From an uncultured Actinomycetes bacterium (lineage in GTDB: Bacteria > Actinomycetota > UBA4738 > HRBIN12), in NCBI GenBank assembly GCA_963704885.1, contig CAVPIB010000004.1, positions 160,001 through 224,000 on the forward strand: a stretch of 64,000 bases of DNA, given 5' to 3'. Positions 31,071 to 42,141 of this stretch are shown here, in pieces (position 1 is the first letter of the stretch; the number at the start of each line of letters is the position of its first letter). The translations under genes were made by a program, and so were the position numbers. Under the pieces are notes generated by a model. That model ran no database searches. It was given only the letters and a program-made list of their open reading frames with translations, and was not told the origin of the DNA.

Positions 31071-33086
31071 GTGCCGCCCTTCCGGATCGCCGCCGACTTC
31101 AAGCCCTCTGGGGACCAGCCCGAGGCGATCGCCCAACTCACGGAGAGCGTCAACGCGGGCGATCCCTACGTGACGCTCCTGGGTGCCACCGGGACCGGAA
31201 AGACCTTCACGGTCGCACACGTGGTGGAGGCCGTCCAGCGTCCCACCCTGGTCATCGCGCCCAACAAGTCTCTCGGCGCGCAGCTCGCCAACGAGTTCCG
31301 CGAGGTCTTCCCCGACAACGCCGTTGAGTACTTCGTGAGCTACTACGACTACTACCAACCCGAGGCATACATCCCGACCACCGACACATACATCGAGAAG
31401 GACTCGTCGGTGAACGACGAGATCGAGCGCCTGCGCCACGCCGCCACAGCCGCCCTCCTGTCCCGGCGCGACGTGCTCATCGTAGCCAGCGTCTCGTGCA
31501 TCTACGGCCTGGGCTCGCCCGAGGAGTATGAGGGCCAGATCCTCCGTCCGTTCAAGGGCACCGAGATCCCGCTCGAGTTCGCCATGCAGCGGCTGGTCGA
31601 CATCCAGTACCAGCGGAACCAGGTCAGCCGGGCACGCGGCACGTTCCGCGTCACCGGCGACACCCTCGAGGTGTTCCCGCCGTACGAGCAGATCGGCACG
31701 CGGATCGAGTGGTGGGGCGACGCGGTCGAGCGGGTCAGCCAGTTCGACCCGCTCACGGGCGAGATCGTTGGCGACCTGACCGAGATAACCATCTACCCCG
31801 CGTCGCACTACGTGGCGAGCGACGACCGCATGAAGCGCGCGCTCGTGACCATCGAACAGGAGCTACACGACCGGCTCGCTGAGCTGAACGAACAGGGCAA
31901 GCTGCTGGAGGCCGAACGCCTGCGTATGCGCACGTCCTACGACCTGGAGATGATGCGCGAGGTCGGGTTCTGCAGCGGCATCGAGAACTACTCGCGCCAC
32001 ATCGACGGACGAGGCCCCGGAACCGCACCGTACACCCTCCTCGACTACTTCCCAGATGACTACCTGGTGGTGATCGATGAGTCTCACGTGACCGTGCCGC
32101 AGCTCCACGGCATGTACGAGGGCGACCTGTCTCGGAAGTCCACCCTGGTCGAACATGGGTTCCGCCTGCCGAGCGCCATCGACAACCGCCCGCTGCGGTT
32201 CGACGAATTCACCGAACGCGCGCACCAGGTCGTATTCATGTCGGCCACGCCCGGCCCGTACGAGCTCCGCGTCACGAAGCGGATCGTCGAGCAGATCGTG
32301 AGGCCGACCGGGCTGGTCGATCCCGAGGTCCAGATACGCCCCACGAAGGGCCAGGTCGACGACCTGATCAACGAGATCCGCGCCCGCGCCGAGAAGGACC
32401 AGCGCGTGCTGGTCACCACCCTCACGAAGAAGATGGCGGAGGACCTGACCGACTACCTGGTCGAGATGGGGATCCGCGTGCGCTACCTGCACTCCGAGGT
32501 CGACACCTTGCAGCGCATCGAGATCCTGCGCGACCTGCGTCTGGGGGAGTTCGACGTCCTGGTCGGCATCAACCTGCTGCGCGAGGGCCTGGACCTCCCC
32601 GAGGTCTCGCTGGTGGCGATCCTGGACGCCGACAAAGAGGGGTTCCTCCGTTCCCAGACGTCGTTGATCCAGACGATCGGCCGAGCGGCGCGCAACGTGG
32701 ACGGCACCGTGCTGATGTACGCGGACCAGATCACCGATTCGATGAAGTCCGCGATCAGCGAGACGCAGCGGCGGCGAAAGCTCCAGATGGCCTACAACAC
32801 GGAGCACGACATCGACCCGCAGACGATACGCCGGCGTGTGTCAGACATACTTCTGTCTCTCGGCGGGGATACCAAGGCGGCTACACCCAAACGGGAGCGG
32901 CGCAAGCGCCCCGCCCACCCCGAGATGCCCACTGAGGAGTTGGAGCGTCTGATCCAGACGCTGGAAGACGAGATGCACGAGGCGGCGAAAGATCTGCGGT
33001 TCGAATACGCGGCGCGCCTGCGCGACGAGGTGGTCGACCTCCGCAAGGAGCTGAAGCAGCTCCGCGCGGCGGGGGTCGGGGCGTGA
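31071..33086 (+). CDS. uvrB: Excinuclease ABC subunit B
   Basis: [48 protein letters not shown]-terminal UVR motif. Confidence 0.98.
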
Positions 33087-34111
33087 CGCTATCCATCCGG
33101 GCCGGGCTCGCGTGGCTCGGACCGGGCAGGTTGGTCGAAGACGCCCAGATCGTCTGCGACGGAGGCATCATCACGTATGCGGGGCCCGCCACGCCGATCA
33201 GCGATGCCGACGAGGCGCTCGAGGTCGGCGGGTTCCTGATGCCAGCGGTGGCCGACCGCCACGTGCATATCGAGTTGTCCGACCCCGCCGCCGTGCTGCG
33301 AGGGGGAGTGACGGCGGTGCGGGATCTGGGGTGGCCATCCGAGCGCATCTTCCCCCTGGCCGATGCGTCGGAGCTGCCGTCCTACAGGGGACCGTTGATC
33401 CGCGCGGCCGGACCCATGCTCACCGGTCACGGCGGCTATCCGACCGGTGAGACTTGGGCGCCGCCCGGGACGGGACGCGAACTCGCCGGGACCGACGACG
33501 CGATCGAGGCGGTCCGCGATCTGGTCGGGCGTGGGGCCACGGCGATCAAGGTCTCGCTGAACTTCGAGGCCGGACCCACGCCGACCGACTCGGAGCTGGC
33601 GGCCATCTGCGACGAGGCGCATCGCCACGATCTGCCCGTGACGGCGCACGCGCAGGGCGCCGGTCAGGTCGAGCGCGCGCTGGGTGCTGGGATCGAGGAG
33701 CTGGCCCATACACCGTGGTCACGCCTTTCCGACGAGGTGATCCAGAACGCCGCCGAACGGATGCGTGTCGTCTCCACCCTCGACATCCTGTCGTTCGGCC
33801 TCGACACGCCGCAGATCCGCACAGCGATCGACAACCTCCGCCGCTTCCATACAGCCGGCGGCACGGTGATCTACGGCACCGACCTAGGCAACGGTTCCAT
33901 CCCGCCCGGCATCCACACCCAGGAGGTGCTCCTGCTCCGTGACGCAGGCCTGGAGCCCGAGGAGATCCTCCATGCCATGGTGCGGGCCCCGATGGACCTG
34001 GACGCGCCCGCCGACCTGATCGCCCTCGGCCGCAGCCCGCTAGACGATCTTGCGGCGTTCGACGACCTGCGGCTCGTCATCCGTGCGGGGAAGGTCATCT
34101 TCCCACCCTGA
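33083..34111 (+). CDS. Metal-dependent amidohydrolase family protein
   Basis: MP...[29 protein letters not shown]; GTGA overlap with uvrB. Confidence 0.85.
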
Positions 34112-34152
34112 TCCGGGTTGCAACGCCCGTCGCGAAAGGGTAGACACGCGCC

Positions 34153-35235
34153 ATGGCACAGACCGAACGACCGGCGGGGATCGCCGTGACCGACGAGATC
34201 ACCTTAGAGGAGCTCCAGCTCGCCGCTCGGAACCACGGCATGCCGCTCGAGGCGCTCCGCTACGACGTGACGCCGATCGGGATGCACTACCTCCTGACTC
34301 ACTTCGATGTCCCTGAGGCGGATGAGGCCTCGTGGATCGTGTCGATCGGCGGCCGCGTCCGGCGCCCGTTCGTGCTCTCGATGGATGACGTCCGCTCGCG
34401 GCCGGAGGTCACCATGCAGGTGACCATGGAGTGCGCCGGCAACGGGCGAGCCAGGTTGCACCCGCGGCCGATCAGCCAGCCGTGGCTCTCTGAGGCGATC
34501 GGAACCGCCGAGTGGACCGGTACGCCGCTCCGGCCACTGCTCGAAGAGGCGAGCCTCGAGGACGACGCCGTCGAGCTCGTCTTCGCTGGCGCCGACCACG
34601 GCACGCAGGGAGGGATCGAGCAGGACTACGAACGGAGCCTCACGATCCTCGACGCGATGCGCGACGAGGTCCTCCTCGCGTATGCGATCAACGGACAGCC
34701 GCTCCCGCCGCAGCACGGGTTCCCGCTCCGGCTGCTCGTTCCGGGGTGGTACGGCATGACGAGCGTGAAGTGGCTCCGGCGGATCACCGCCGTCGCCGAG
34801 CCGTTCGACGGGTACCAGATGGACGCCTACCGCTTGCGACAGGAATCAGGCGATGAAGGGATCCCCGTCACCCGTATGCAGCCGCGTGCGCTGATGATCC
34901 CGCCCGGGTTCCCTGAGTTCTTCTACCGAACGCGGACGCTGGACGCCGGGCCCACCACGCTGGAGGGGCGCGCGTGGTCGGGATCGGGCCTCGTCACACG
35001 GGTCGAGGTGAGCGCTGATGGGGGAACGAGCTGGGATGACGCGGCGCTGGAGCCCCCGGCGGGACCGTACGCCTGGCGCCGCTGGACGTTCGGATGGACG
35101 GCCGTTCCAGGCGAGCATGAGCTCGTCGTGCGTGCCACCGACGACGCCGGGGATGTTCAGCCGCTCGACGCACGGTGGAACCACCACGGCCTCCTCAACA
35201 ACATGGTGCAGCGGGTGCCGGTCATCGTCCGCTAG
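34153..35235 (+). CDS. Sulfite oxidase family molybdoenzyme (no obvious signal peptide)
   Basis: MECAGNGR (Mo-ligand Cys), AEWTG, HGFPLRLLVPGWYGMTSVKWL, VEVS.DGG, RATD. Confidence 0.9.
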   Translation: MAQTERPAGIAVTDEITLEELQLAARNHGMPLEALRYDVTPIGMHYLLTHFDVPEADEASWIVSIGGRVRRPFVLSMDDVRSRPEVTMQVTMECAGNGRARLHPRPISQPWLSEAIGTAEWTGTPLRPLLEEASLEDDAVELVFAGADHGTQGGIEQDYERSLTILDAMRDEVLLAYAINGQPLPPQHGFPLRLLVPGWYGMTSVKWLRRITAVAEPFDGYQMDAYRLRQESGDEGIPVTRMQPRALMIPPGFPEFFYRTRTLDAGPTTLEGRAWSGSGLVTRVEVSADGGTSWDDAALEPPAGPYAWRRWTFGWTAVPGEHELVVRATDDAGDVQPLDARWNHHGLLNNMVQRVPVIVR

Positions 35236-35250
35236 TCTGAGTCAGACTAG
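35226..35250. repeat. Left copy of a palindromic direct repeat (att-like)
   Basis: cgtccgCTAGTCtgagtcaGACTAG; 21/25 identical to 38706-38730. Confidence 0.8.
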
Positions 35251-35859
35251 TCGGCTAAGTCTATCGACCAGGTTGGCCGCCCCAAAGAGAGGCCGTTGCC
35301 CTGTCAGGAGTACGAAGGCAGCGACCAGCTCTGCGCCGGTGGCCGGTGAAGGGAGGAGTGGTGCGATGGACCCCTCTCCTAGTCCCCAAGCGATGATCTC
35401 GGCAGCCTGCTCGAAGCCGCGTTCCTTCCACGGGACCGACTCGTCGTCCCACACACGGATGTCACGCAGCGCCAAGAACCGGGCCCGGATGCCTTCGTCA
35501 ACGTTGGCAACCGTCCACGCGTGGGCGACCTCATGGAGCGCGAACTTTCGCGCGTACGGCTCGGATGAACGACCGGTGCACAGGTCGATACGCCCTAGCC
35601 ACCAATAGCCGATCTTGCCATGGCATGGAGCCGTTGATCCATGGAGGAATACTAGGGTCGGCGGGAGCGGCCAAAGAGCGGCCAACCGGAAGCGCTCGAT
35701 GGCCCATTCGACACCTGCCCTCTGCGCGGCATGGCCCCCGTAGATGATGGTGCCGCTCGCGAGTGAGGACACCGTCGAGGTCGGACCGAGGAACGCGATC
35801 GATGCCGATAGTGCGACAAGCACTGCGAAACGGCTGGTCGGGCTGCTCGTTGTGTCCAT
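35242..35859 (-). CDS. Secreted HEXXH (zincin-like) protein
   Basis: Hydrophobic N-terminus FAVLVALSASIAFLG; FALHEVAHAW; downstream FEQAAE candidate third ligand. Confidence 0.7.
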   Translation of the reverse strand: MDTTSSPTSRFAVLVALSASIAFLGPTSTVSSLASGTIIYGGHAAQRAGVEWAIERFRLAALWPLPPTLVFLHGSTAPCHGKIGYWWLGRIDLCTGRSSEPYARKFALHEVAHAWTVANVDEGIRARFLALRDIRVWDDESVPWKERGFEQAAEIIAWGLGEGSIAPLLPSPATGAELVAAFVLLTGQRPLFGAANLVDRLSRLV

Positions 35860-35865
35860 GCCCCG

Positions 35866-35919
35866 ACGTTCGGGGCGGGCACTCGCTGATCGGCCGCAAT
35901 GCGCTGGAGGATCGCTGGA
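35866..35919 (-). promoter_or_regulatory. Putative SARP-activated promoter with phased heptamer repeats
   Basis: Minus strand TCCAGCG (35919-13), TCCAGCG (35908-02), GCGAGTG (35886-80), 8 nt, GAACGT (35871-66), 6 nt, ATG. Confidence 0.6.
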
Positions 35920-35982
35920 AGGTGCCCCTCGTCACCCGTATCGCCCTCGACTTGACGGGAGCGTCGGCATAGCGTTCTGCTC

Positions 35983-38676
35983 GTGGAGTTCCGGATCCTT
36001 GGACCGCTGGAGGTCTGGTCGGCCGATCGTTCCCTTCCGCTCGGGGGACCTAAGCAGCGCGCCGTCGTAGCCCAGCTGATCCTTCGCGCTAACCAAGTCG
36101 TGACGGCGGAGCAGCTGATCGATGAACTCTGGGGCGAGGAACCTCCGGAAACCGCGCGGAACACACTGCAGACGTACGTCTATCGGCTGCGGAAGGTGTT
36201 GGGCGAGGAGCGCATCGAGTCTGCCGCCGGCGCCTATCGACTCCGTGCGGACCCCAGTGAGATCGACTCAGCCCGGTTCGAGGTCCTCGTGCGCGAGGCC
36301 CGCCGGTTGCTCGACTCGGATCCGGAAGGTGCCCTCGCGCGCCTGGACGAGGCACTCGCGTCTTGGCGGGGACCCGCCTTCTCGGACCTGCCTGGCGACC
36401 CGTCGCTCCGAGGTGAAGTGGCGAGGCTGGAGGATCTTCGTCTCGTGGCGATAGAACAACAGATCTCGGCCCGGCTCGCGCTAGGTCGGCACACAACCGT
36501 GATCGGCGCACTCGAGAGCTTGACCGGTCGGTATCCGCTCCGCGAGCGGCTGTGGGGGGGCCTGATGCTCGCGCTGTACCGCAACGGTCGGCAGGCGGAG
36601 GCCTTGGACGCGTATCGCCGCGCCAGGGAGGTGCTCGCGGAGGAGCTGGGCATCGATCCGTCCCCTGAGCTCCAGCAGCTCCACGAGCGGATCCTCCGCC
36701 AGGACCCGGAGCTGGTCGAAGCGACGCCGATTCCTCGCTCGACCCGGTCGGTAGCGGGGGAGCTCACCCCCGGGAGTAGCTTCGCGGGTTACCGGATCGA
36801 CTCCGTGCTCGGTCGCGGTGGCATGAGCGTCGTGTACCTGGCGGAGCACCTCTCGCTCAGGCGGAAGGTCGCGCTGAAGGTCCTCGCCCCTCAGCTTGCG
36901 CAAGACGTTCGGTTCCGCGAACGGTTCGTGCGAGAGTCCCGGATCGCGGCAGGGATGGAGCACCCGGGGATCGTCCCGATCTACGAGGCCGGTGAAGACG
37001 ACGGCCTCCTGTTCATCGCCATGCGGTACGTACCGGGTACGGATCTCGGAGGCCTGATCCGGAGCGAAGGCGTGCTCCCGTCCGATCGTGTCGCCTGGAT
37101 CGTCGGCGAGTTGGCGTCTGCTCTTGATGCTGCGCACGCACGTGGCCTCGTTCACCGAGACGTCAAGCCTGGGAACGTCCTCGTGGTCGAGGGAGGAGGG
37201 AGGGAGGGCCGTGACCTCGTCTATCTCTCGGACTTCGGGCTCACGAAGCGACTCGAAGGGGGAACCGGCGGCCTCACGCAGATCGGGCAGTTCGTGGGAA
37301 CCGTCGACTACGTCGCCCCCGAACAGATCGAGGGGAAGCCGCTCGACGGTCGCACCGACGTCTATTCCCTTGCGTGCTTGGTGTTCGAGTGCCTGGTGGG
37401 GAACCCGCCGTTCGCTCGCGATGAACCGATGGCCGTCCTCTACGCGCACCTGCGAGAACGCCCACCTCGCCTGACGAGCCCGGAGTTGCCGGCTGAGGCT
37501 GATCGCGTGCTCGCGAGAGCACTCTCCAAACGCGCAGCTGATCGGTTCCCGACGTGCGGATCGTTCGCGTCGGCGTTCCGTGAAGCGCTCGGCGCGCTCG
37601 CTGGTGAGGGACTCGGGGAGGACGGTCGCGCCGTCCATCGGTCGGCGAGGAGGCGCACCGGGGTCGCGGCGCTCGTGGCCACCCTGGCCGCCGGAGCGAT
37701 CGTGTTCGCCCTCGCCAGTGGGGGAACGCCGGTCGCCGATGGTGGTGAGGACTCCCCGGCGCCGACGCAGAGCCTCGGTCCCACCTCGAGCTCGACACCC
37801 GCACCGCATTTCGCCACAGTGGAGCGGGCCCTGTCGTCCGATGAGACGCGTCTCCAGAGCTATCTCCCCGAGGGCATGACCGACTGCTTGCCGCTTGATC
37901 GCGCGAACCCGGTCGGGGCCCAGCTGGCGGCGCTCGTCTGTCACGACGAGCCGGTCGAAGTCCTCTACCAGCTGTTCCCGCGCCTCGACCTTATGGACGC
38001 GGCCTTCGATGTCAACGCCAACATGAGAAGTGCCCCGGCAGGGGAGTGTGCCACCGACCGGGTCGCCGTGACCGCGTACACCGTTGGGGGCGAAGCTGCG
38101 GGCCGCGTCTTGTGCTATACGCAGAGACCGGCGGGAGCGTCCGAATTCGGACCGAATCTGGATCCGGTGGAGGGCGAATCCCACATCGAATGGACGGACG
38201 CAAGGCTCTTGATCTACGCACAAGCGATCCGGAACGACCTGTTCGATCTCACGCTGTACGACTGGTGGCGATCGTACAGCGGCCCGGTGATCCCGACCGA
38301 GGATGGTGCGATCGGGCTCCAGAAGGACCTGCCAACCGAGGCGACAGCAGCGCCTCACGGTACGTATCTCCTCTCCGTGGGCCCGAGTGACGACGTCACC
38401 GAGCCGGGAACGTACGACATACGGTTGCGCGGCGGCGCCTACGAGATCGATATCGATGGGTCGCTCAGCCAGACTGGCGCGCTCTTCTACCGCAAACCGG
38501 ACATGGTGGTCTTCGTTCCGGAAGAGGGGCGGTGCAACCACCCGACGGCATCGCCTATGCCAGCGCGGTACGGGTGGTCGATGTCTGGCGCTCGCCTGAC
38601 GTGGGAGTTCCGTGGCGGCGGGAGCTGCGCGGGACCTCAAGTCGGTGCTGGGCGACTCCTTTGGATCCGAGCATAG
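35983..38676 (+). CDS. AfsR/SARP regulator (winged HTH + BTAD) fused to a Ser/Thr kinase, transmembrane helix and extracellular domain
   Basis: MEFRILGPLEV, LMLALYRNGRQAEAL, ELGIDPS; GRGGMS, VALK, HRDVKPGN, DFG, GTVDYVAPE; TM GVAALVATLAAGAIVFALA; Cys-containing C-terminal part. Confidence 0.92.
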   Translation: MEFRILGPLEVWSADRSLPLGGPKQRAVVAQLILRANQVVTAEQLIDELWGEEPPETARNTLQTYVYRLRKVLGEERIESAAGAYRLRADPSEIDSARFEVLVREARRLLDSDPEGALARLDEALASWRGPAFSDLPGDPSLRGEVARLEDLRLVAIEQQISARLALGRHTTVIGALESLTGRYPLRERLWGGLMLALYRNGRQAEALDAYRRAREVLAEELGIDPSPELQQLHERILRQDPELVEATPIPRSTRSVAGELTPGSSFAGYRIDSVLGRGGMSVVYLAEHLSLRRKVALKVLAPQLAQDVRFRERFVRESRIAAGMEHPGIVPIYEAGEDDGLLFIAMRYVPGTDLGGLIRSEGVLPSDRVAWIVGELASALDAAHARGLVHRDVKPGNVLVVEGGGREGRDLVYLSDFGLTKRLEGGTGGLTQIGQFVGTVDYVAPEQIEGKPLDGRTDVYSLACLVFECLVGNPPFARDEPMAVLYAHLRERPPRLTSPELPAEADRVLARALSKRAADRFPTCGSFASAFREALGALAGEGLGEDGRAVHRSARRRTGVAALVATLAAGAIVFALASGGTPVADGGEDSPAPTQSLGPTSSSTPAPHFATVERALSSDETRLQSYLPEGMTDCLPLDRANPVGAQLAALVCHDEPVEVLYQLFPRLDLMDAAFDVNANMRSAPAGECATDRVAVTAYTVGGEAAGRVLCYTQRPAGASEFGPNLDPVEGESHIEWTDARLLIYAQAIRNDLFDLTLYDWWRSYSGPVIPTEDGAIGLQKDLPTEATAAPHGTYLLSVGPSDDVTEPGTYDIRLRGGAYEIDIDGSLSQTGALFYRKPDMVVFVPEEGRCNHPTASPMPARYGWSMSGARLTWEFRGGGSCAGPQVGAGRLLWIRA

Positions 38677-38705
38677 GCCGGGACGGGCTCATCGAGCACA
38701 GTTCA

Positions 38706-38730
38706 CGTTCGCTAGTCTGAGGTGGACTAG
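38706..38730. repeat. Right copy of the palindromic direct repeat (att-like)
   Basis: cgttcgCTAGTCtgaggtgGACTAG; contains the stop codon of the convergent aminotransferase gene. Confidence 0.8.
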
Positions 38731-39878
38731 ATCAAGGCTCGGAGTTCGTCGAAGCAGCGATCGACGTCCTCCTCGGTGTTGAAGAAGTGGGGGCTGATCC
38801 TAAGGCCGTCCCCCCGGAAGTCAGTGCAGACGTCGCGGTCGAGCAACGCATGACAGATCCTCGCGGCTTGGGGTCCGACCCCCACGTTCACCACGCCGCC
38901 TCGCGCCTGGCGAGAGCGTGGCGTCCGCACCGGCAGTCCGGCCTCATCCGCTCGGGCGATCACGTGATCGGTCAGCTCGCCCTGACGTTCGCGGATCCGC
39001 TCGGGTGTGGCCTCCGCGATGATGTCCAGGCCGCCCTGCGCGATGAAGAACACGGGCGCCGGCGGCGTCCCGTGCTCCAGCCTTCGCGCGGTCGGGTGGT
39101 ACTCGAGGTGCTGGTTATCGAACGAGAACGGCTCGCTCGTGGCGAACCACCCGGTAACGGCTGGCTCCAAGTTCGGCAGTAGCTCGCGGCGCGCGTAAAG
39201 GAAGACCGTCCCGGGGCCGCCCAGAAGGAACTTGAGGGTCCCCGCGACGTACAGGTCGCAGCCCAGGTCGTGCAGGTCCAGCGGGACGATCCCGATGCCG
39301 TGGTAGTCATCGACGAACGACAGGGCACCTCGTTCGCGTGCCAAGGTGCAGATCGCCTTCGCATCGACGATCGCGCTCGACCGATACAGAACGCGGTTCA
39401 CCATCACCAGGGCGGTCCGTTCGTCGATCGCTTCCTCGTAGGCCTCTATCGGGATCGTGAGGCCGTCCTCTGACCGAAGCCAGACGATCTCGGCGCCGCG
39501 TGACCGCTGGGCGAGCCAAACATGCCCGTCGGTGGGGAAGTCCAACTCGGACATGACGATCCGGTTGCGCTCGCCGGTGAAGGTCAGGCAAGTCGCGATC
39601 GTTGCCAGGGCGATCGAGGTGTTGGTGGTGATCGCCAGCTCGTCGGTGTCGCAACGAGTCAAGGTCGCGAACGTCTGCTTGAGCGTGGCCATCCGCGGGA
39701 AGATGTCCTCCATCCACACGTGATCGGGCGCGCCCTTGGTCGCCCAGGCGTCCATGTAGTCGGCCAGATAGCGCTGCGACCGTGTCGACACGGGACCGAG
39801 TGACGCGCTGATCAGATAGGTCTTGCGCTCGAGCACCGGGAACTCGTCCCGGTAGGAGAGCAGCGAGCGCTCAGGCGT
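38727..39878 (-). CDS. Class V PLP-dependent enzyme, kynureninase-like; probable ACG start
   Basis: YRDEFP, SLGP, DFPTD, VDDYHGIG, GTLKFLLGGPG (PLP Lys), GWF, LEHGTPP, LRISPHFFN. Confidence 0.85.
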   Translation of the reverse strand, partial: TPERSLLSYRDEFPVLERKTYLISASLGPVSTRSQRYLADYMDAWATKGAPDHVWMEDIFPRMATLKQTFATLTRCDTDELAITTNTSIALATIATCLTFTGERNRIVMSELDFPTDGHVWLAQRSRGAEIVWLRSEDGLTIPIEAYEEAIDERTALVMVNRVLYRSSAIVDAKAICTLARERGALSFVDDYHGIGIVPLDLHDLGCDLYVAGTLKFLLGGPGTVFLYARRELLPNLEPAVTGWFATSEPFSFDNQHLEYHPTARRLEHGTPPAPVFFIAQGGLDIIAEATPERIRERQGELTDHVIARADEAGLPVRTPRSRQARGGVVNVGVGPQAARICHALLDRDVCTDFRGDGLRISPHFFNTEEDVDRCFDELRALI

Positions 39879-40149
39879 CGGGGTGCTCCTCGAGGTACTC
39901 CACGTACATCGGTCGGAGCGCCTCGCCCAACTCTCCCTCGCCGGCATCGTAGAGGTCGTTGATCAAGGCGAGCGGACGGGCGATATCTACCTTGCTTCGC
40001 TCGTCGTCGCCGATGACCTCCTCCGCCACGGGGAGCGCCTTCACCAGATCCCAGAGGAAGCCCACGTCCAGATGGTGCTTGGCGCGGTCGATCGCGCGGT
40101 CGTACAACTCTTTCGTGGTCAGGAGCTCGAGCTCTTCACGGGTCGACAT
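39871..40149 (-). CDS. Small hypothetical protein
   Basis: Leaderless TAGGCT-N6-ATG; protein-like acidic helical sequence; tight packing with neighbours. Confidence 0.75.
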   Translation of the reverse strand: MSTREELELLTTKELYDRAIDRAKHHLDVGFLWDLVKALPVAEEVIGDDERSKVDIARPLALINDLYDAGEGELGEALRPMYVEYLEEHPDA

Positions 40150-40158
40150 GCGTCCAGC

Positions 40159-42141
40159 CTACTCAGCCGCGGGAGCGGGCGGCATGAACCGCTCGAACCA
40201 CGCGAGCGTGCGGGTCACCAGATCGAGCAGGGCCGGGAAGTTCCGGACGCCGTGACCTTCCAGCGGATACAGCGCCAGGTCGGTGGGGACGCCGTGCTCG
40301 CGGAGGGCCCGGTGGAACTCGGTCGCCTGCCCGATCGGGGTGGCGCGGTCCAGATACCCGGCGGTGAGGAGCGTAGGGGTCCGGTTGCGGTCGGCCAGAA
40401 GGACGGGGCTCCGCTCGTGGTAGTGGGCCTGTCGATCGTGCGGATCGCCGCCCAGGAAGTCCTGTGCCCAGACGCCGAGGTTGCTGTCGAACCGCTCGGA
40501 GTACCAGTCGGTCACAGGCGCGATCGAGACGGATGCGGCGAAGCGCTGATCGAGACATGGGAGGAGCGCCGCCATGAAGCCACCGTAGCTCCCGCCGAAT
40601 ACCCCGAGCCTGGTTGGATCGGCCACGCCCGAACTCAGCACGTGGTCGACCCCGGCGAGGAGGTCCAGCGCGTCGGCGCCCCCCATATCACCGACGACCC
40701 GAGAAGCGAAGTCCCGCCCTCGCCCCCAGGAACCGCGCGGGTTCGGCTGGAGGAGTGCGTAGCCGCGTGCCAAGAGGAGCCCGAGGAACGTCCCCGGCCA
40801 GAGGTCGGCGTACGCCCAGACCGGGCCGCCGTGCACGTCGAGGATCAGCGGGAATGGGCCTTCTCCGGCGGGAAGGGTCAAGAAGCCCTGGATCTCCAGA
40901 CCGTCCGGCGCGGACCATGTGAGTACCTCTCTCGAGGCTACCGCCGACGCCACCGCCTCCGTTCCCTCGGTCACCGTCGAGACGATCGTGCGCGGTTCAC
41001 CGTCCGCCACGACCACGATCTCGGGGGGGCGGGTAGCGGAGTTCCGCGTGGTGACGACGTCGTCGCCGATCGGCGCTGCCGCTAGGAACAGGGCGCCGCA
41101 CCCCTCGCTAGTGGCCCAGCGTTCCTGCGCCGCGCCGGCGTCGGTGTTGACGTCGAGCAACACGGTGTCCAGACCGCGGATGCCGGTGGCCAAGAGCGCG
41201 CCGTCCGCACGCCAAGCGAGCCAAGCGACATCGACATCCAGCGTGTTCACCCGGCGGACGTCGTCGCTCCTCGGATCGAGGAGCAGGAGCTCGCCGGCCA
41301 CGATCAGTCGGTCACTGCAGATCGCTTCGACGACGGCTGCGAGGCTGCCGTCGGGAGCGGCCGAAACCCACCCCAGCTGCACGTCCGTCTCGAAGAGCGT
41401 TCGGTCGGTCCTGACAGCGGGGTCGATCGCGACGACGCGTGAGCGGTACCAGGCGCCCTCGCCGGGCTCGTCCGAGGCGATCGCGACGATCAGATCGTCA
41501 CCGCACCAGGCCGCCTCCCAGATGTTGAGGTCGCCTCGACACGCCGGGGAGATCTCACCCGATTCGACGTCGAGCGTCACCAGCCGCCGTCGCGTCGCGT
41601 CCAGCCGGTCCGAGGACTCCACCGCAGGGACCCAGGCCGGCAGCTCATCCGACCGCCCCACCACGCCGGACCCGACGGCGTCGGACTGCTCCGCCTCCAG
41701 GCCTGCGACGACGATCAGGATCATGGAACCGTCGGGCGACCACGCGTGCGACTCCGCGACGCCTTCGACCTGCGGGAGCGCTCGGGCCTCGCCGATCGCA
41801 TCGGAGTCGAGCGCGAATAGCTGGTGCTTGCCCGCCTCCGCCCGGTCCGACCTGAAGGTCAACGTCCGTCCGTCCGGCGACCATCGCGGCTGATCGTCGT
41901 CGTTGGGGCCGTCCGTGATCCGCCGGCTCGACGACCCGTCGACGCCGGCGAGCCCGATCCGTCCGACGGGATGGCCCTCGAGCCGTTCCAAGACGTCGCC
42001 CCGGAACGCGATCCACCGACTGTCGGGGGAGGGCCGCGGGTCGGACACGTCCGAGAACTCGCCGAACCCCGGCCCAAGGGCCCGGCGGTAGAAGTCCTCC
42101 ACCTCCTTGTAGAGAGGTGTCTCGCGAAGGTCTCTGTCCAT
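40159..42141 (-). CDS. S9 family (acylaminoacyl/prolyl oligopeptidase-like) peptidase
   Basis: WSPDG repeats, VHGGP, PNPRGSWG, GGSYGG nucleophile, D and EGH triad residues. Confidence 0.92.
   Translation of the reverse strand: MDRDLRETPLYKEVEDFYRRALGPGFGEFSDVSDPRPSPDSRWIAFRGDVLERLEGHPVGRIGLAGVDGSSSRRITDGPNDDDQPRWSPDGRTLTFRSDRAEAGKHQLFALDSDAIGEARALPQVEGVAESHAWSPDGSMILIVVAGLEAEQSDAVGSGVVGRSDELPAWVPAVESSDRLDATRRRLVTLDVESGEISPACRGDLNIWEAAWCGDDLIVAIASDEPGEGAWYRSRVVAIDPAVRTDRTLFETDVQLGWVSAAPDGSLAAVVEAICSDRLIVAGELLLLDPRSDDVRRVNTLDVDVAWLAWRADGALLATGIRGLDTVLLDVNTDAGAAQERWATSEGCGALFLAAAPIGDDVVTTRNSATRPPEIVVVADGEPRTIVSTVTEGTEAVASAVASREVLTWSAPDGLEIQGFLTLPAGEGPFPLILDVHGGPVWAYADLWPGTFLGLLLARGYALLQPNPRGSWGRGRDFASRVVGDMGGADALDLLAGVDHVLSSGVADPTRLGVFGGSYGGFMAALLPCLDQRFAASVSIAPVTDWYSERFDSNLGVWAQDFLGGDPHDRQAHYHERSPVLLADRNRTPTLLTAGYLDRATPIGQATEFHRALREHGVPTDLALYPLEGHGVRNFPALLDLVTRTLAWFERFMPPAPAAE

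Follow-up and report, generated by a model that had tools for sequence, protein, structure and literature searches.

When two closely similar palindromes stand on either side of a small group of genes, is the DNA between them a cassette that a recombinase has moved, or do the palindromes serve another function and mark the borders of an insertion for a different reason? The question is raised by a stretch of 64,000 nucleotides (the window) from the genome of an uncultured Actinomycetes bacterium (G000:C4:160001-224000), the assembly of which comprises 3.0 Mb in 20 contigs, has 65–69% guanine plus cytosine (GC) and is 97% complete; genomes, contigs and loci are given here by handles beginning with G, C and L. 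A 19-bp palindrome is present in this window at 35232..35250 (CTAGTCTGAGTCAGACTAG) and again, 3480 bp from this left copy, at 38712..38730 (CTAGTCTGAGGTGGACTAG). The two genes between these copies, one for a protein with an HEXXH motif and one for a SARP-type regulator fused to a kinase, were interpreted in an earlier note made from the sequence alone (the original prediction) as a module which an unidentified recombinase, acting in trans on sites laid out like tyrosine-recombinase cores, had mobilised. The observation behind that prediction is real and its interpretation is partly supported. Our own reading, to which we give a probability of roughly 0.6, is that the palindrome is the operator of a PadR protein, that this operator has been multiplied to gene ends, and that the two-gene module was inserted at one such site, without a recombinase-driven cassette being involved.

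The two sites are present much as they were first described, i.e. the 25-mers beginning 6 bp upstream of the left and right palindromes agree at 21/25 positions and have the 12-mer CGCTAGTCTGAG as an exact match in common. The description of their symmetry as 6-bp inverted arms around a 7-bp spacer needs correction, for although the pattern CTAGTC-N7-GACTAG fits both sites, the palindrome on the left is perfect, with 9+1+9 symmetry. The central seven bases are TGAGTCA in the left copy and TGAGGTG in the right (4/7 identical, 3/7 different), and the six bases to the left of each copy agree at 5/6 positions (CGTCCG left, CGTTCG right). Allowing one mismatch, the pattern is found at just 2 places in the window, where dinucleotide shuffles lead to an expectation of 0.05 and at least two occurrences were seen in 0/100 shuffles.

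A palindrome family at gene ends

Both flagged sites belong to a set of about 60 copies of one 19-bp palindrome, specific to this lineage, in which CTAGTCYR half-sites enclose three free bases. The original prediction noted the lack of a third copy, which is true within the window, but the 3.0-Mb genome contains 49 exact copies of CTAGTC-N7-GACTAG. The same arms occur 0 times at spacings of 0–6 and 8–14, and seven control arms of similar composition gave 0–2 occurrences. A position matrix of the 49 copies has the consensus a-CTAGTC-Y-R-NNN-Y-R-GACTAG-t, with no run of T after the motif. Scoring of the 16-position consensus CTAGTCYR-N3-YRGACTAG across the genome yields 46, 20, 3, 30 and 497 windows with 0, 1, 2, 3 and 4 mismatches, respectively, compared with 0, 1 and 20 windows at 0, 1 and 2 mismatches for a scrambled control motif, and the family is therefore sharply bounded. 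A dispersed element of this kind, with its 46 perfect and 20 one-mismatch copies, is what the original prediction itself had named as evidence against its interpretation. Some of the copies lie on small contigs which repeat larger ones (C2/C3 with C4, C12/C13 with C1, and C9 with C11), so that the counts are inflated by about five and the number of distinct loci is nearer 60. The contigs C2, C3, C9, C11, C12 and C13 repeat gene orders with slightly different gene lengths and are probably collapsed strain variants, the contamination of the assembly being 4.5%.

The position of the copies relative to genes was determined using gene calls from our own heuristic caller (2896 genes, 91% coding). 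Among 69 sites with up to two mismatches, 37 are at convergent junctions, 22 at tandem junctions and 1 at a divergent junction, with 9 in-frame inside genes; of the 2876 junctions that form the background, 410 are convergent, 2054 tandem and 412 divergent. At least one stop codon of a flanking gene is contained in 43/57 extragenic sites with up to one mismatch, and 9 sites contain the stops of both neighbours. These stops are TAG in 45 cases and TGA in 7, compared with 1810 TGA, 940 TAG and 137 TAA codons genome-wide. The nine copies inside called genes (C1:206628, C1:544541, C1:585696, C4:141778 and C4:985913 among them) are tolerated in coding sequence, since the in-frame copies are read through as Leu-Val-x-x-Arg/Gly-Leu; eight of the nine share the frame CTA GTC.

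Copies of the palindrome are kept at orthologous junctions across genera. Within the genus, 14 orthologous junctions of G000 and G012 provided 15 site pairs, because the two copies of the flagged locus were both paired with the single copy of G012. The arm positions of these pairs are identical in 14–15 of 15 and the last base in 12/15, and agreement at the three bases of the centre falls to 6, 6 and 4 of 15. Arms that remain identical around drifting centres indicate purifying selection on the arms at fixed addresses, unlike what is seen for the scars of a mobile cassette. The half-sites vary independently of each other: the combinations at positions 7/13 (TA 25, CA 13, TG 5, CG 3) match the product of their marginals, and this lack of dependence implies that the half-sites evolve separately and not as a stem. 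The arm types TG, CG and CA likewise assort at random in G000 and in G012, the latter as judged from a count by hand over 33 exact sites. The inner bases of the half-sites differ by lineage, with CTAGTCCA...TGGACTAG prevailing in G157 and CTAGTCTGG...CCAGACTAG in G020.

The copies are also spaced more widely than their preference for certain junctions would predict, with 1, 2 and 0 gaps of less than 10 kb on G000 C1, G000 C4 and G012:C2, respectively, versus 4.1, 5.4 and 3.1 when positions are simulated from real junctions. Apart from the flagged 3.48-kb pair and one tandem pair, the smallest gap between copies is ~10 kb, and the listed sites of G017 and G024 have no gap under ~14 kb. Sites occur near dnaA (C1:197.6 kb) and also near the GC-skew terminus (~C4:250 kb), and are thus neither excluded from the terminus nor confined to it. 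GC skew and gene-strand bias change sign at ~C4:250–300 kb, beginning ~26 kb past the end of the window, which places the window ~30–90 kb from the likely replication terminus. A search of G000 for decayed copies beside intact ones gave only self-overlap artefacts at +/-15 bp (19 vs 10.4 expected). At C4:387665-387700 a decayed copy is followed by an intact new one, and the orthologous position in G012 (G012:C2:885805) has one intact copy, a sign of local turnover or replacement.

A PadR regulator and its candidate operator

The only tandem pair of palindromes in G000 (C1:491206 and 491231) is located 17 bp upstream of a gene (C1:491267-491815) for a protein of 182 amino acids, which matches the Pfam family PadR at 1.5e-20 and for which all matches in the PDB are members of the PadR family. 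Position and co-occurrence together suggest that the palindrome is probably the operator of this PadR protein, which is predicted to repress its own gene, and that the additional gene-end copies are further predicted binding sites.

The upstream position is widely conserved. One or two copies precede the PadR gene in 12/13 genomes of the genus, and in the other, G002, the contig ends inside the gene. Of the orthologue-bearing genomes that were inspected (9 genera, 3 families), 10/10 have a copy 11–50 bp upstream of the PadR start codon, and a copy is also present upstream of the PadR orthologue in G148, G157, G099, G127, G149, G071 and G139. Ten PadR orthologues which are 54–85% identical overall share an invariant recognition helix (ASVYQ.L.RLE) and an invariant wing (GPDRRV). 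The double upstream arrangement, in which a standard copy is followed 5–7 bp later by a CTGGTC...GACCAG variant, is kept in 6/13 genus genomes (loci L181, L197), and in G004 both arms of the second upstream copy are altered in such a way that the palindrome is perfect. The PadR orthologue at G018:C279:418-948 has an in-frame TAG; this genome contains only a single exact copy, the gene being preceded by one with one mismatch, and the system may be decaying here.

Matches to the PadR protein among 41 relatives are bimodal, one class having E <= 1.2e-53 and identities of 54% or more, the other E of ~1e-11 to 1e-15 and mostly 27–30% full-length identity. On this basis a PadR orthologue is present in 21/23 relatives with at least one exact copy of the palindrome and in 0/18 without a copy. 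The two exceptions, G027 (83% complete) and G033 (81%), are also without the neighbouring HAD-hydrolase gene, which was used as a control and is found at E <= 1e-91 in 38/41 genomes, and the absence of this near-universal gene indicates that the PadR locus is unassembled in both. Other genes replace PadR upstream of the HAD gene in the motif-less genomes G013 and G021. The regions upstream of the five best PadR paralogues in motif-less genomes contained the palindrome in 0/5 cases; 4/5 of these regions are AT-rich and palindromic-looking by eye.

The association was also seen in an order-wide sample of 151 evenly drawn genomes, each at least 85% complete, for which an orthologue was defined by E <= 1e-35. 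The first pass gave 46 genomes with both motif and PadR, 3 with the motif only, 3 with PadR only and 99 with neither, and after re-checks these numbers became 48, 2, 2 and 99. In G071, as the re-check revealed, a copy is followed after 19 bp by the N-terminal 84 residues of PadR (71% identity); G139 has four copies with one mismatch each, and one of these precedes the PadR orthologue by 18 bp. Two genomes of the same genus provide a contrast, in that G157 has 17 copies and a PadR orthologue and G019 has neither. At only 48%, the identity of the G157 PadR orthologue is low, perhaps because protein and site have co-evolved. The tallies include five genomes flagged as unpublished (G008, G029, G037, G085 and G128), of which G008 and G029 also appear in the junction and upstream-site listings, and the conclusions are unchanged without them.

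Two other proteins were considered as partners of the palindrome. The RAYT transposase family (Y1_Tnp, PF01797) was ruled out by its absence from G000 (0 matches in the assembly, which was searched except for 16 kb of C4) and its rarity, since it was found in 2/41 relatives, G018 (1 copy of the motif) and G035 (0 copies), neither of which is motif-rich. A DUF559/Vsr-like nuclease is likewise missing from G000 and was found in 4/41 relatives, without relation to the presence of the motif.

Possible roles of the gene-end copies

As far as the available text of PMC3506622 describes them, the operators of B. subtilis PadR and L. lactis LmrR are composed of an ATGT/ACAT inverted motif with a spacer of 8–10 nucleotides and are associated with autoregulation, and PadR proteins structurally resemble the replication terminator protein RTP (PMC3506622). 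The palindrome is similar to the operators covered there in being an inverted repeat with short half-site cores ~7–9 bp apart, located upstream of the regulator's own gene (PMC3506622). It differs from them in its half-site, which is CTAGTCYR and not ATGT, and in the 20–60 further copies per genome, which are found at gene 3' ends and not at promoters, beside functionally unrelated genes.

A classical regulon is unlikely, because the genes downstream of tandem sites have unrelated functions, encoding a CDP-alcohol transferase, a Glu/Leu dehydrogenase, an acyl-CoA dehydrogenase, an AlgH-like protein, an aldehyde dehydrogenase, a Met-tRNA synthetase, a response regulator, a sulfatase and IlvC. 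PadR dimers bound to the gene-end copies would be roadblocks or insulators which stop read-through between tail-to-tail genes, a tentative suggestion to which we give somewhat less than even odds. More doubtful is the wider idea of a genome-wide protein punctuation, in which PadR and the palindrome at 20–60 gene ends would block tail-to-tail transcription in a lineage poor in U-tract terminators. The insertion of a new gene would then duplicate the palindrome, each new convergent junction would keep one copy, and the flagged locus would be an example caught in the course of this process. Among the literature matches listed for PadR in combination with roadblocks, convergent genes or palindromes, there was nothing relevant. 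If PadR does read these sites, a protein from a classical family of repressors that respond to small molecules has taken on the marking of gene ends, at dozens of genes unrelated to one another. To our knowledge, high-GC Actinomycetota lack canonical terminators; how gene ends are defined in these bacteria is an open question, of which the mycobacterial TRIT element is one instance, and the system described here offers a testable protein candidate, with one protein, one 19-bp site and ~60 addresses.

A number of points weigh against the reading that we prefer. The evidence for the link to PadR consists of position and co-occurrence; the motif profile was compared with those of PadR, one neighbour gene (HAD), Y1_Tnp and DUF559 only, and related genomes are non-independent samples. 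No PadR orthologue was found in G047 (5 copies) or G051 (2 copies), and G143 and G054 have an orthologue-level PadR match with no copy at up to one mismatch. Most sites are in places that cannot hold a promoter, the regulator's role there being unexplained, and the spread of a 16-base-specific site to dozens of places has no explanation either. At the flagged locus, the data from G000 leave both origins of the second copy standing, viz. duplication of the target and a copy brought by the donor DNA, and the 5/6 agreement to the left of the copies also fits an enzyme with staggered cuts. The sites also fold, with a median of -10.25 kcal/mol compared with -4.7 kcal/mol for random 23-mers, which is compatible with a role as an RNA hairpin.

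That role, in which the palindrome would act mainly in RNA at transcript 3' ends, as a bidirectional terminator, an RNase III site or an mRNA stabiliser, with PadR not being its reader and the copy ahead of the PadR gene being one more gene-end copy or a target, we consider unlikely. The folding energies of the + strand (-11.5 kcal/mol for the left site and -8.1 kcal/mol for the right) agree with it, as does the nature of the variants at positions 7, 8, 12 and 13, which are transitions, after which G-U pairs can still form on one strand. However, the paired positions 7 and 13 lack covariation, and the strand compatible with wobble pairing is the transcribed one in just 5/9 tandem sites, by a count made by hand. 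A scan of 34800-39200 for U-tract terminators gave 0 terminator-like sites, with none at either palindrome, so that intrinsic (Rho-independent) terminators differ from the palindrome in having a U-tract after the hairpin, and an Rfam search of 33000-41000 with E up to 1 matched no family. Furthermore, the co-occurrence with PadR, the fixed position upstream of its gene and the loss of copies in congeners without PadR would all be unexpected for a hairpin that works independently of protein.

The location of the sites at 3' ends, with stop codons in the stem, is shared with TRIT as the accessible parts of two papers present it (PMC3152330, PMC13714241). There, TRIT is a conserved bidirectional palindrome at gene ends which overlaps the stop codon, with 147 copies in M. 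tuberculosis, and for which a sequence-specific factor, then unknown, was proposed by the authors (PMC3152330); doubt has since been cast on its role in termination, with processing by RNase III put forward (PMC13714241). It is ~45–50 nucleotides long and restricted to Mycobacterium (PMC3152330, PMC13714241). When compared with TRIT by the description of the latter, not by sequence, the palindrome studied here is likewise a sequence-conserved gene-end element that overlaps stops (43/57 extragenic copies), and it differs from what those papers report in its length of 19 bp, its occurrence in another actinobacterial lineage, its lack of stem covariation and its link to PadR.

Considered as a PadR operator, the palindrome can also be set beside other families of dispersed sites. 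It resembles REP/REPIN elements in being a short extragenic palindrome with tens of copies, a preference for convergent genes and a patchy distribution among related genomes; unlike REP/REPIN elements with RAYT, it has no Y1_Tnp protein in G000, forms no doublets around a transposase gene, and has arms that are invariant rather than co-varying. SlmA/SBS, Noc/NBS and MatP/matS are systems in which tens of palindromic sites across the chromosome are bound by a dimeric, chromosome-organising protein that belongs to a transcription-factor family, and are either excluded from the terminus or confined to it. The palindrome has in common with these systems tens of dispersed copies of high specificity, here also with few pairs under 10 kb, and is unlike them in that its copies are found near both dnaA and the GC-skew terminus and are tied to gene ends.

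Insertion of two genes at a palindrome

The DNA between the two 19-mers (35251..38711, 3461 bp) is absent from the corresponding junction in 12/12 same-genus relatives and in G015, which belongs to another genus. Window positions 33083-42141 were compared with 25 relatives using BLASTN, followed by comparison of the junction sequences. The sulfite-oxidase and aminotransferase genes that flank the segment in G000 abut on one intact copy of the palindrome in G012, G011 and G003 (same genus) and in G015, and on one decayed copy in G001 and G004 (same genus). Empty sites with a single repeat, which the original prediction had proposed to look for, thus exist in five same-genus genomes as well as in G015. 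The single copy of G012 and G015 has the same sequence as the left one in G000, and the right arm of the right copy together with the following ATCA is the end of the aminotransferase gene in G011 and G005; the outer arms of both copies run on into ancestral gene ends. Since the flanks of the relatives abut on one copy, the segment with the HEXXH and SARP-kinase genes represents a genuine insertion with a copy at either end. The genus forms a clade in the tree of the flanking aminotransferase, with support of 100/99 and with G015 outside, which makes a single gain in the G000 lineage the parsimonious explanation. The pair was inserted in the G000 lineage at a junction which already carried one copy, and as a result there are now two convergent junctions, each with one copy. 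The expectation of a repeat-bounded gain of both genes that keeps the neighbours whole was therefore correct, with the 3.48-kb indel ending exactly in the repeats.

Other DNA occupies the junction in further relatives, each time with a single copy of the palindrome, i.e. an 815-bp filler in G002 and G006, 235 bp of non-coding DNA in G007, and a 620-bp plus-strand gene in G005, G009 and G010. None of these fillers has homology to the G000 segment by BLASTN. The 815-bp filler contains a reverse-strand open reading frame, hydrolase-like by eye, with an apparent stop inside the palindrome. In the distant relatives G008, G014, G028 and G029 the amidohydrolase gene (33083-34111) directly adjoins the aminotransferase gene, with no sulfite-oxidase gene between them, which makes the sulfite-oxidase gene itself an earlier insertion. 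In all, five or more different inserts have entered this convergent junction across the clade.

The genes at the locus are arranged such that three of their stop codons lie inside the sites, as the original prediction had it and as the coordinates of the open reading frames confirm. The gene for a sulfite-oxidase-like molybdopterin oxidoreductase of 360 amino acids (34153..35235, + strand; Pfam Oxidored_molyb 3.2e-56, Mo-co_dimer 1.9e-16) has its TAG stop within the left palindrome. The HEXXH gene (35242..35859, - strand) also ends within this palindrome, which holds its final two codons and its TGA stop; the translation of this gene, 205 amino acids long, has a hydrophobic N-terminus and an HEVAH motif, and found no family match in Pfam or NCBIfam. 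The SARP-type regulator fused to a Ser/Thr kinase (35983..38676, + strand, 897 amino acids) has the domains Trans_reg_C (2.4e-12), BTAD (1e-48) and Pkinase (8.8e-43), followed by ~350 unassigned C-terminal residues, all its NCBIfam matches being under their cut-offs, and its reading frame stops 35 bp short of the right site. The right palindrome contains the TAG stop of the gene for a class-V aminotransferase or kynureninase-like protein of 406 amino acids (38727..39947, - strand; Aminotran_5 2.2e-31, KYNU_C 1.3e-11). The GC content of the inserted segment, which the original prediction had proposed to compare with the flanks, is 64–69% and no different from that of the flanks, and no recombinase gene was found among the open reading frames and Pfam matches of the segment.

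The second copy would have arisen together with the insertion event, either because the target palindrome was duplicated during break repair, or through short-homology recombination with a palindrome copy carried by the donor DNA. The 5/6 agreement to the left of both copies, for which the probability by chance is roughly 0.01–0.03 as estimated by hand, hints at a target duplication of 25 bp. The three clustered central differences are expected of old copies and of unrelated copies alike. Ku is present in G000, so that capture of DNA by end joining at a broken palindrome would be possible.

The behaviour of the palindrome at other insertions was followed in a comparison of G000 with G012:C2 (1,443,516 bp), which gave 859 reciprocal best hits with a median amino acid identity of 78%, 695 of them on G000 C4, and 692 junctions between consecutive anchors. 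The motif is present at 8/42 unchanged convergent junctions, 2/10 with insertions in G000, 1/8 with insertions in G012 and 2/13 with replacements, i.e. at 5/31 with indels or replacements versus 8/42 without, and is not enriched at indels. Divergent junctions have the motif in 0/68 cases and sharp rearrangement breakpoints in 0/3. Between tandem anchors it occurs in 9/131 cases with genes gained or replaced versus 5/420 without, an excess not read as recombination because inserted genes create new convergent ends. Two flanking copies are found at 1/104 one-sided indels, which is the flagged locus, and the proposed genome scan for pairs of the motif around other accessory genes accordingly found no second case in this comparison. 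Among the sequencing runs listed, of DNA or RNA, none contained the locus, where excised or circular forms or expression might have been seen.

These results bear directly on the idea of a site-specific, tyrosine-type recombinase which is encoded elsewhere and renders the two-gene segment mobilisable by crossover in the shared left part of the sites. Inverted arms around a short spacer are the layout of tyrosine-recombinase core sites, which the 6–7-bp arms around 7 bp resemble, but a classical tyrosine recombinase would not tolerate spacers that differ at 3/7 positions. The one-copy empty sites of the relatives and the ends of the segment exactly in the repeats would suit such an enzyme, as would the repeated gain of genes at this junction (the 815-, 620- and 235-bp fillers) and the otherwise unexplained 5/6 agreement of the 6 bp to the left of the copies; however, the other fillers have one copy only, and ~60 copies are kept at orthologous gene ends, unlike att or attC sites. 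The segment also shares with integron attC and tyrosine-recombinase att systems its position between two related palindromic sites, and is unlike them in having no integrase, no array and non-identical central regions. Given in addition that the motif is as common at convergent junctions lacking indels as at those that have them, that it accompanies a PadR regulator, and that 7 other genomes have the same module with no motif, we regard mobilisation by a recombinase in trans as very improbable. We infer that the second copy was made without a dedicated recombinase and that the segment is no member of a cassette system. The locus shows that a repeat-bounded insertion and an empty site are insufficient for inferring a recombinase-driven cassette, and that the behaviour of the repeat across the genome is needed.

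The least probable account is that the two genes are ancestral and G000 retains the old state, for although direct repeats of 12–19 bp can mediate precise deletion and the empty sites look like its expected product, all 12 same-genus genomes and G015 are without the segment, which would require at least two identical independent losses versus one gain, the fillers of the relatives have no homology to it, and more distant relatives have not even the sulfite-oxidase gene at the junction.

The insertion at a PadR-type palindrome, as we read it, involved a pair of genes which is also found elsewhere. Among 80 loci encoding relatives of the SARP-kinase, which were searched for HEXXH homologues and for the palindrome, a HEXXH homologue is divergent and just upstream of the SARP-kinase homologue in 7/80 (L021, L022, L023, L024, L029, L045 and L088), and lies at another position within the locus in L025 and L026. 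The palindrome, with up to one mismatch, was found in 0/80 SARP-kinase loci, and the recurrence of the divergent pair in 7 other genomes without it indicates that the pair is a unit independent of the motif. In L088, where the kinase is 75% identical, an ion-channel/cyclase pair lies on one side of the module and unrelated genes on the other. G000 itself has a second, diverged pair at C4:34224-39659, with an HEXXH protein that is 40% identical and a kinase protein of 1570 amino acids; this pair is 1.5 kb from the palindrome at C4:32686, a copy which is kept in G012.

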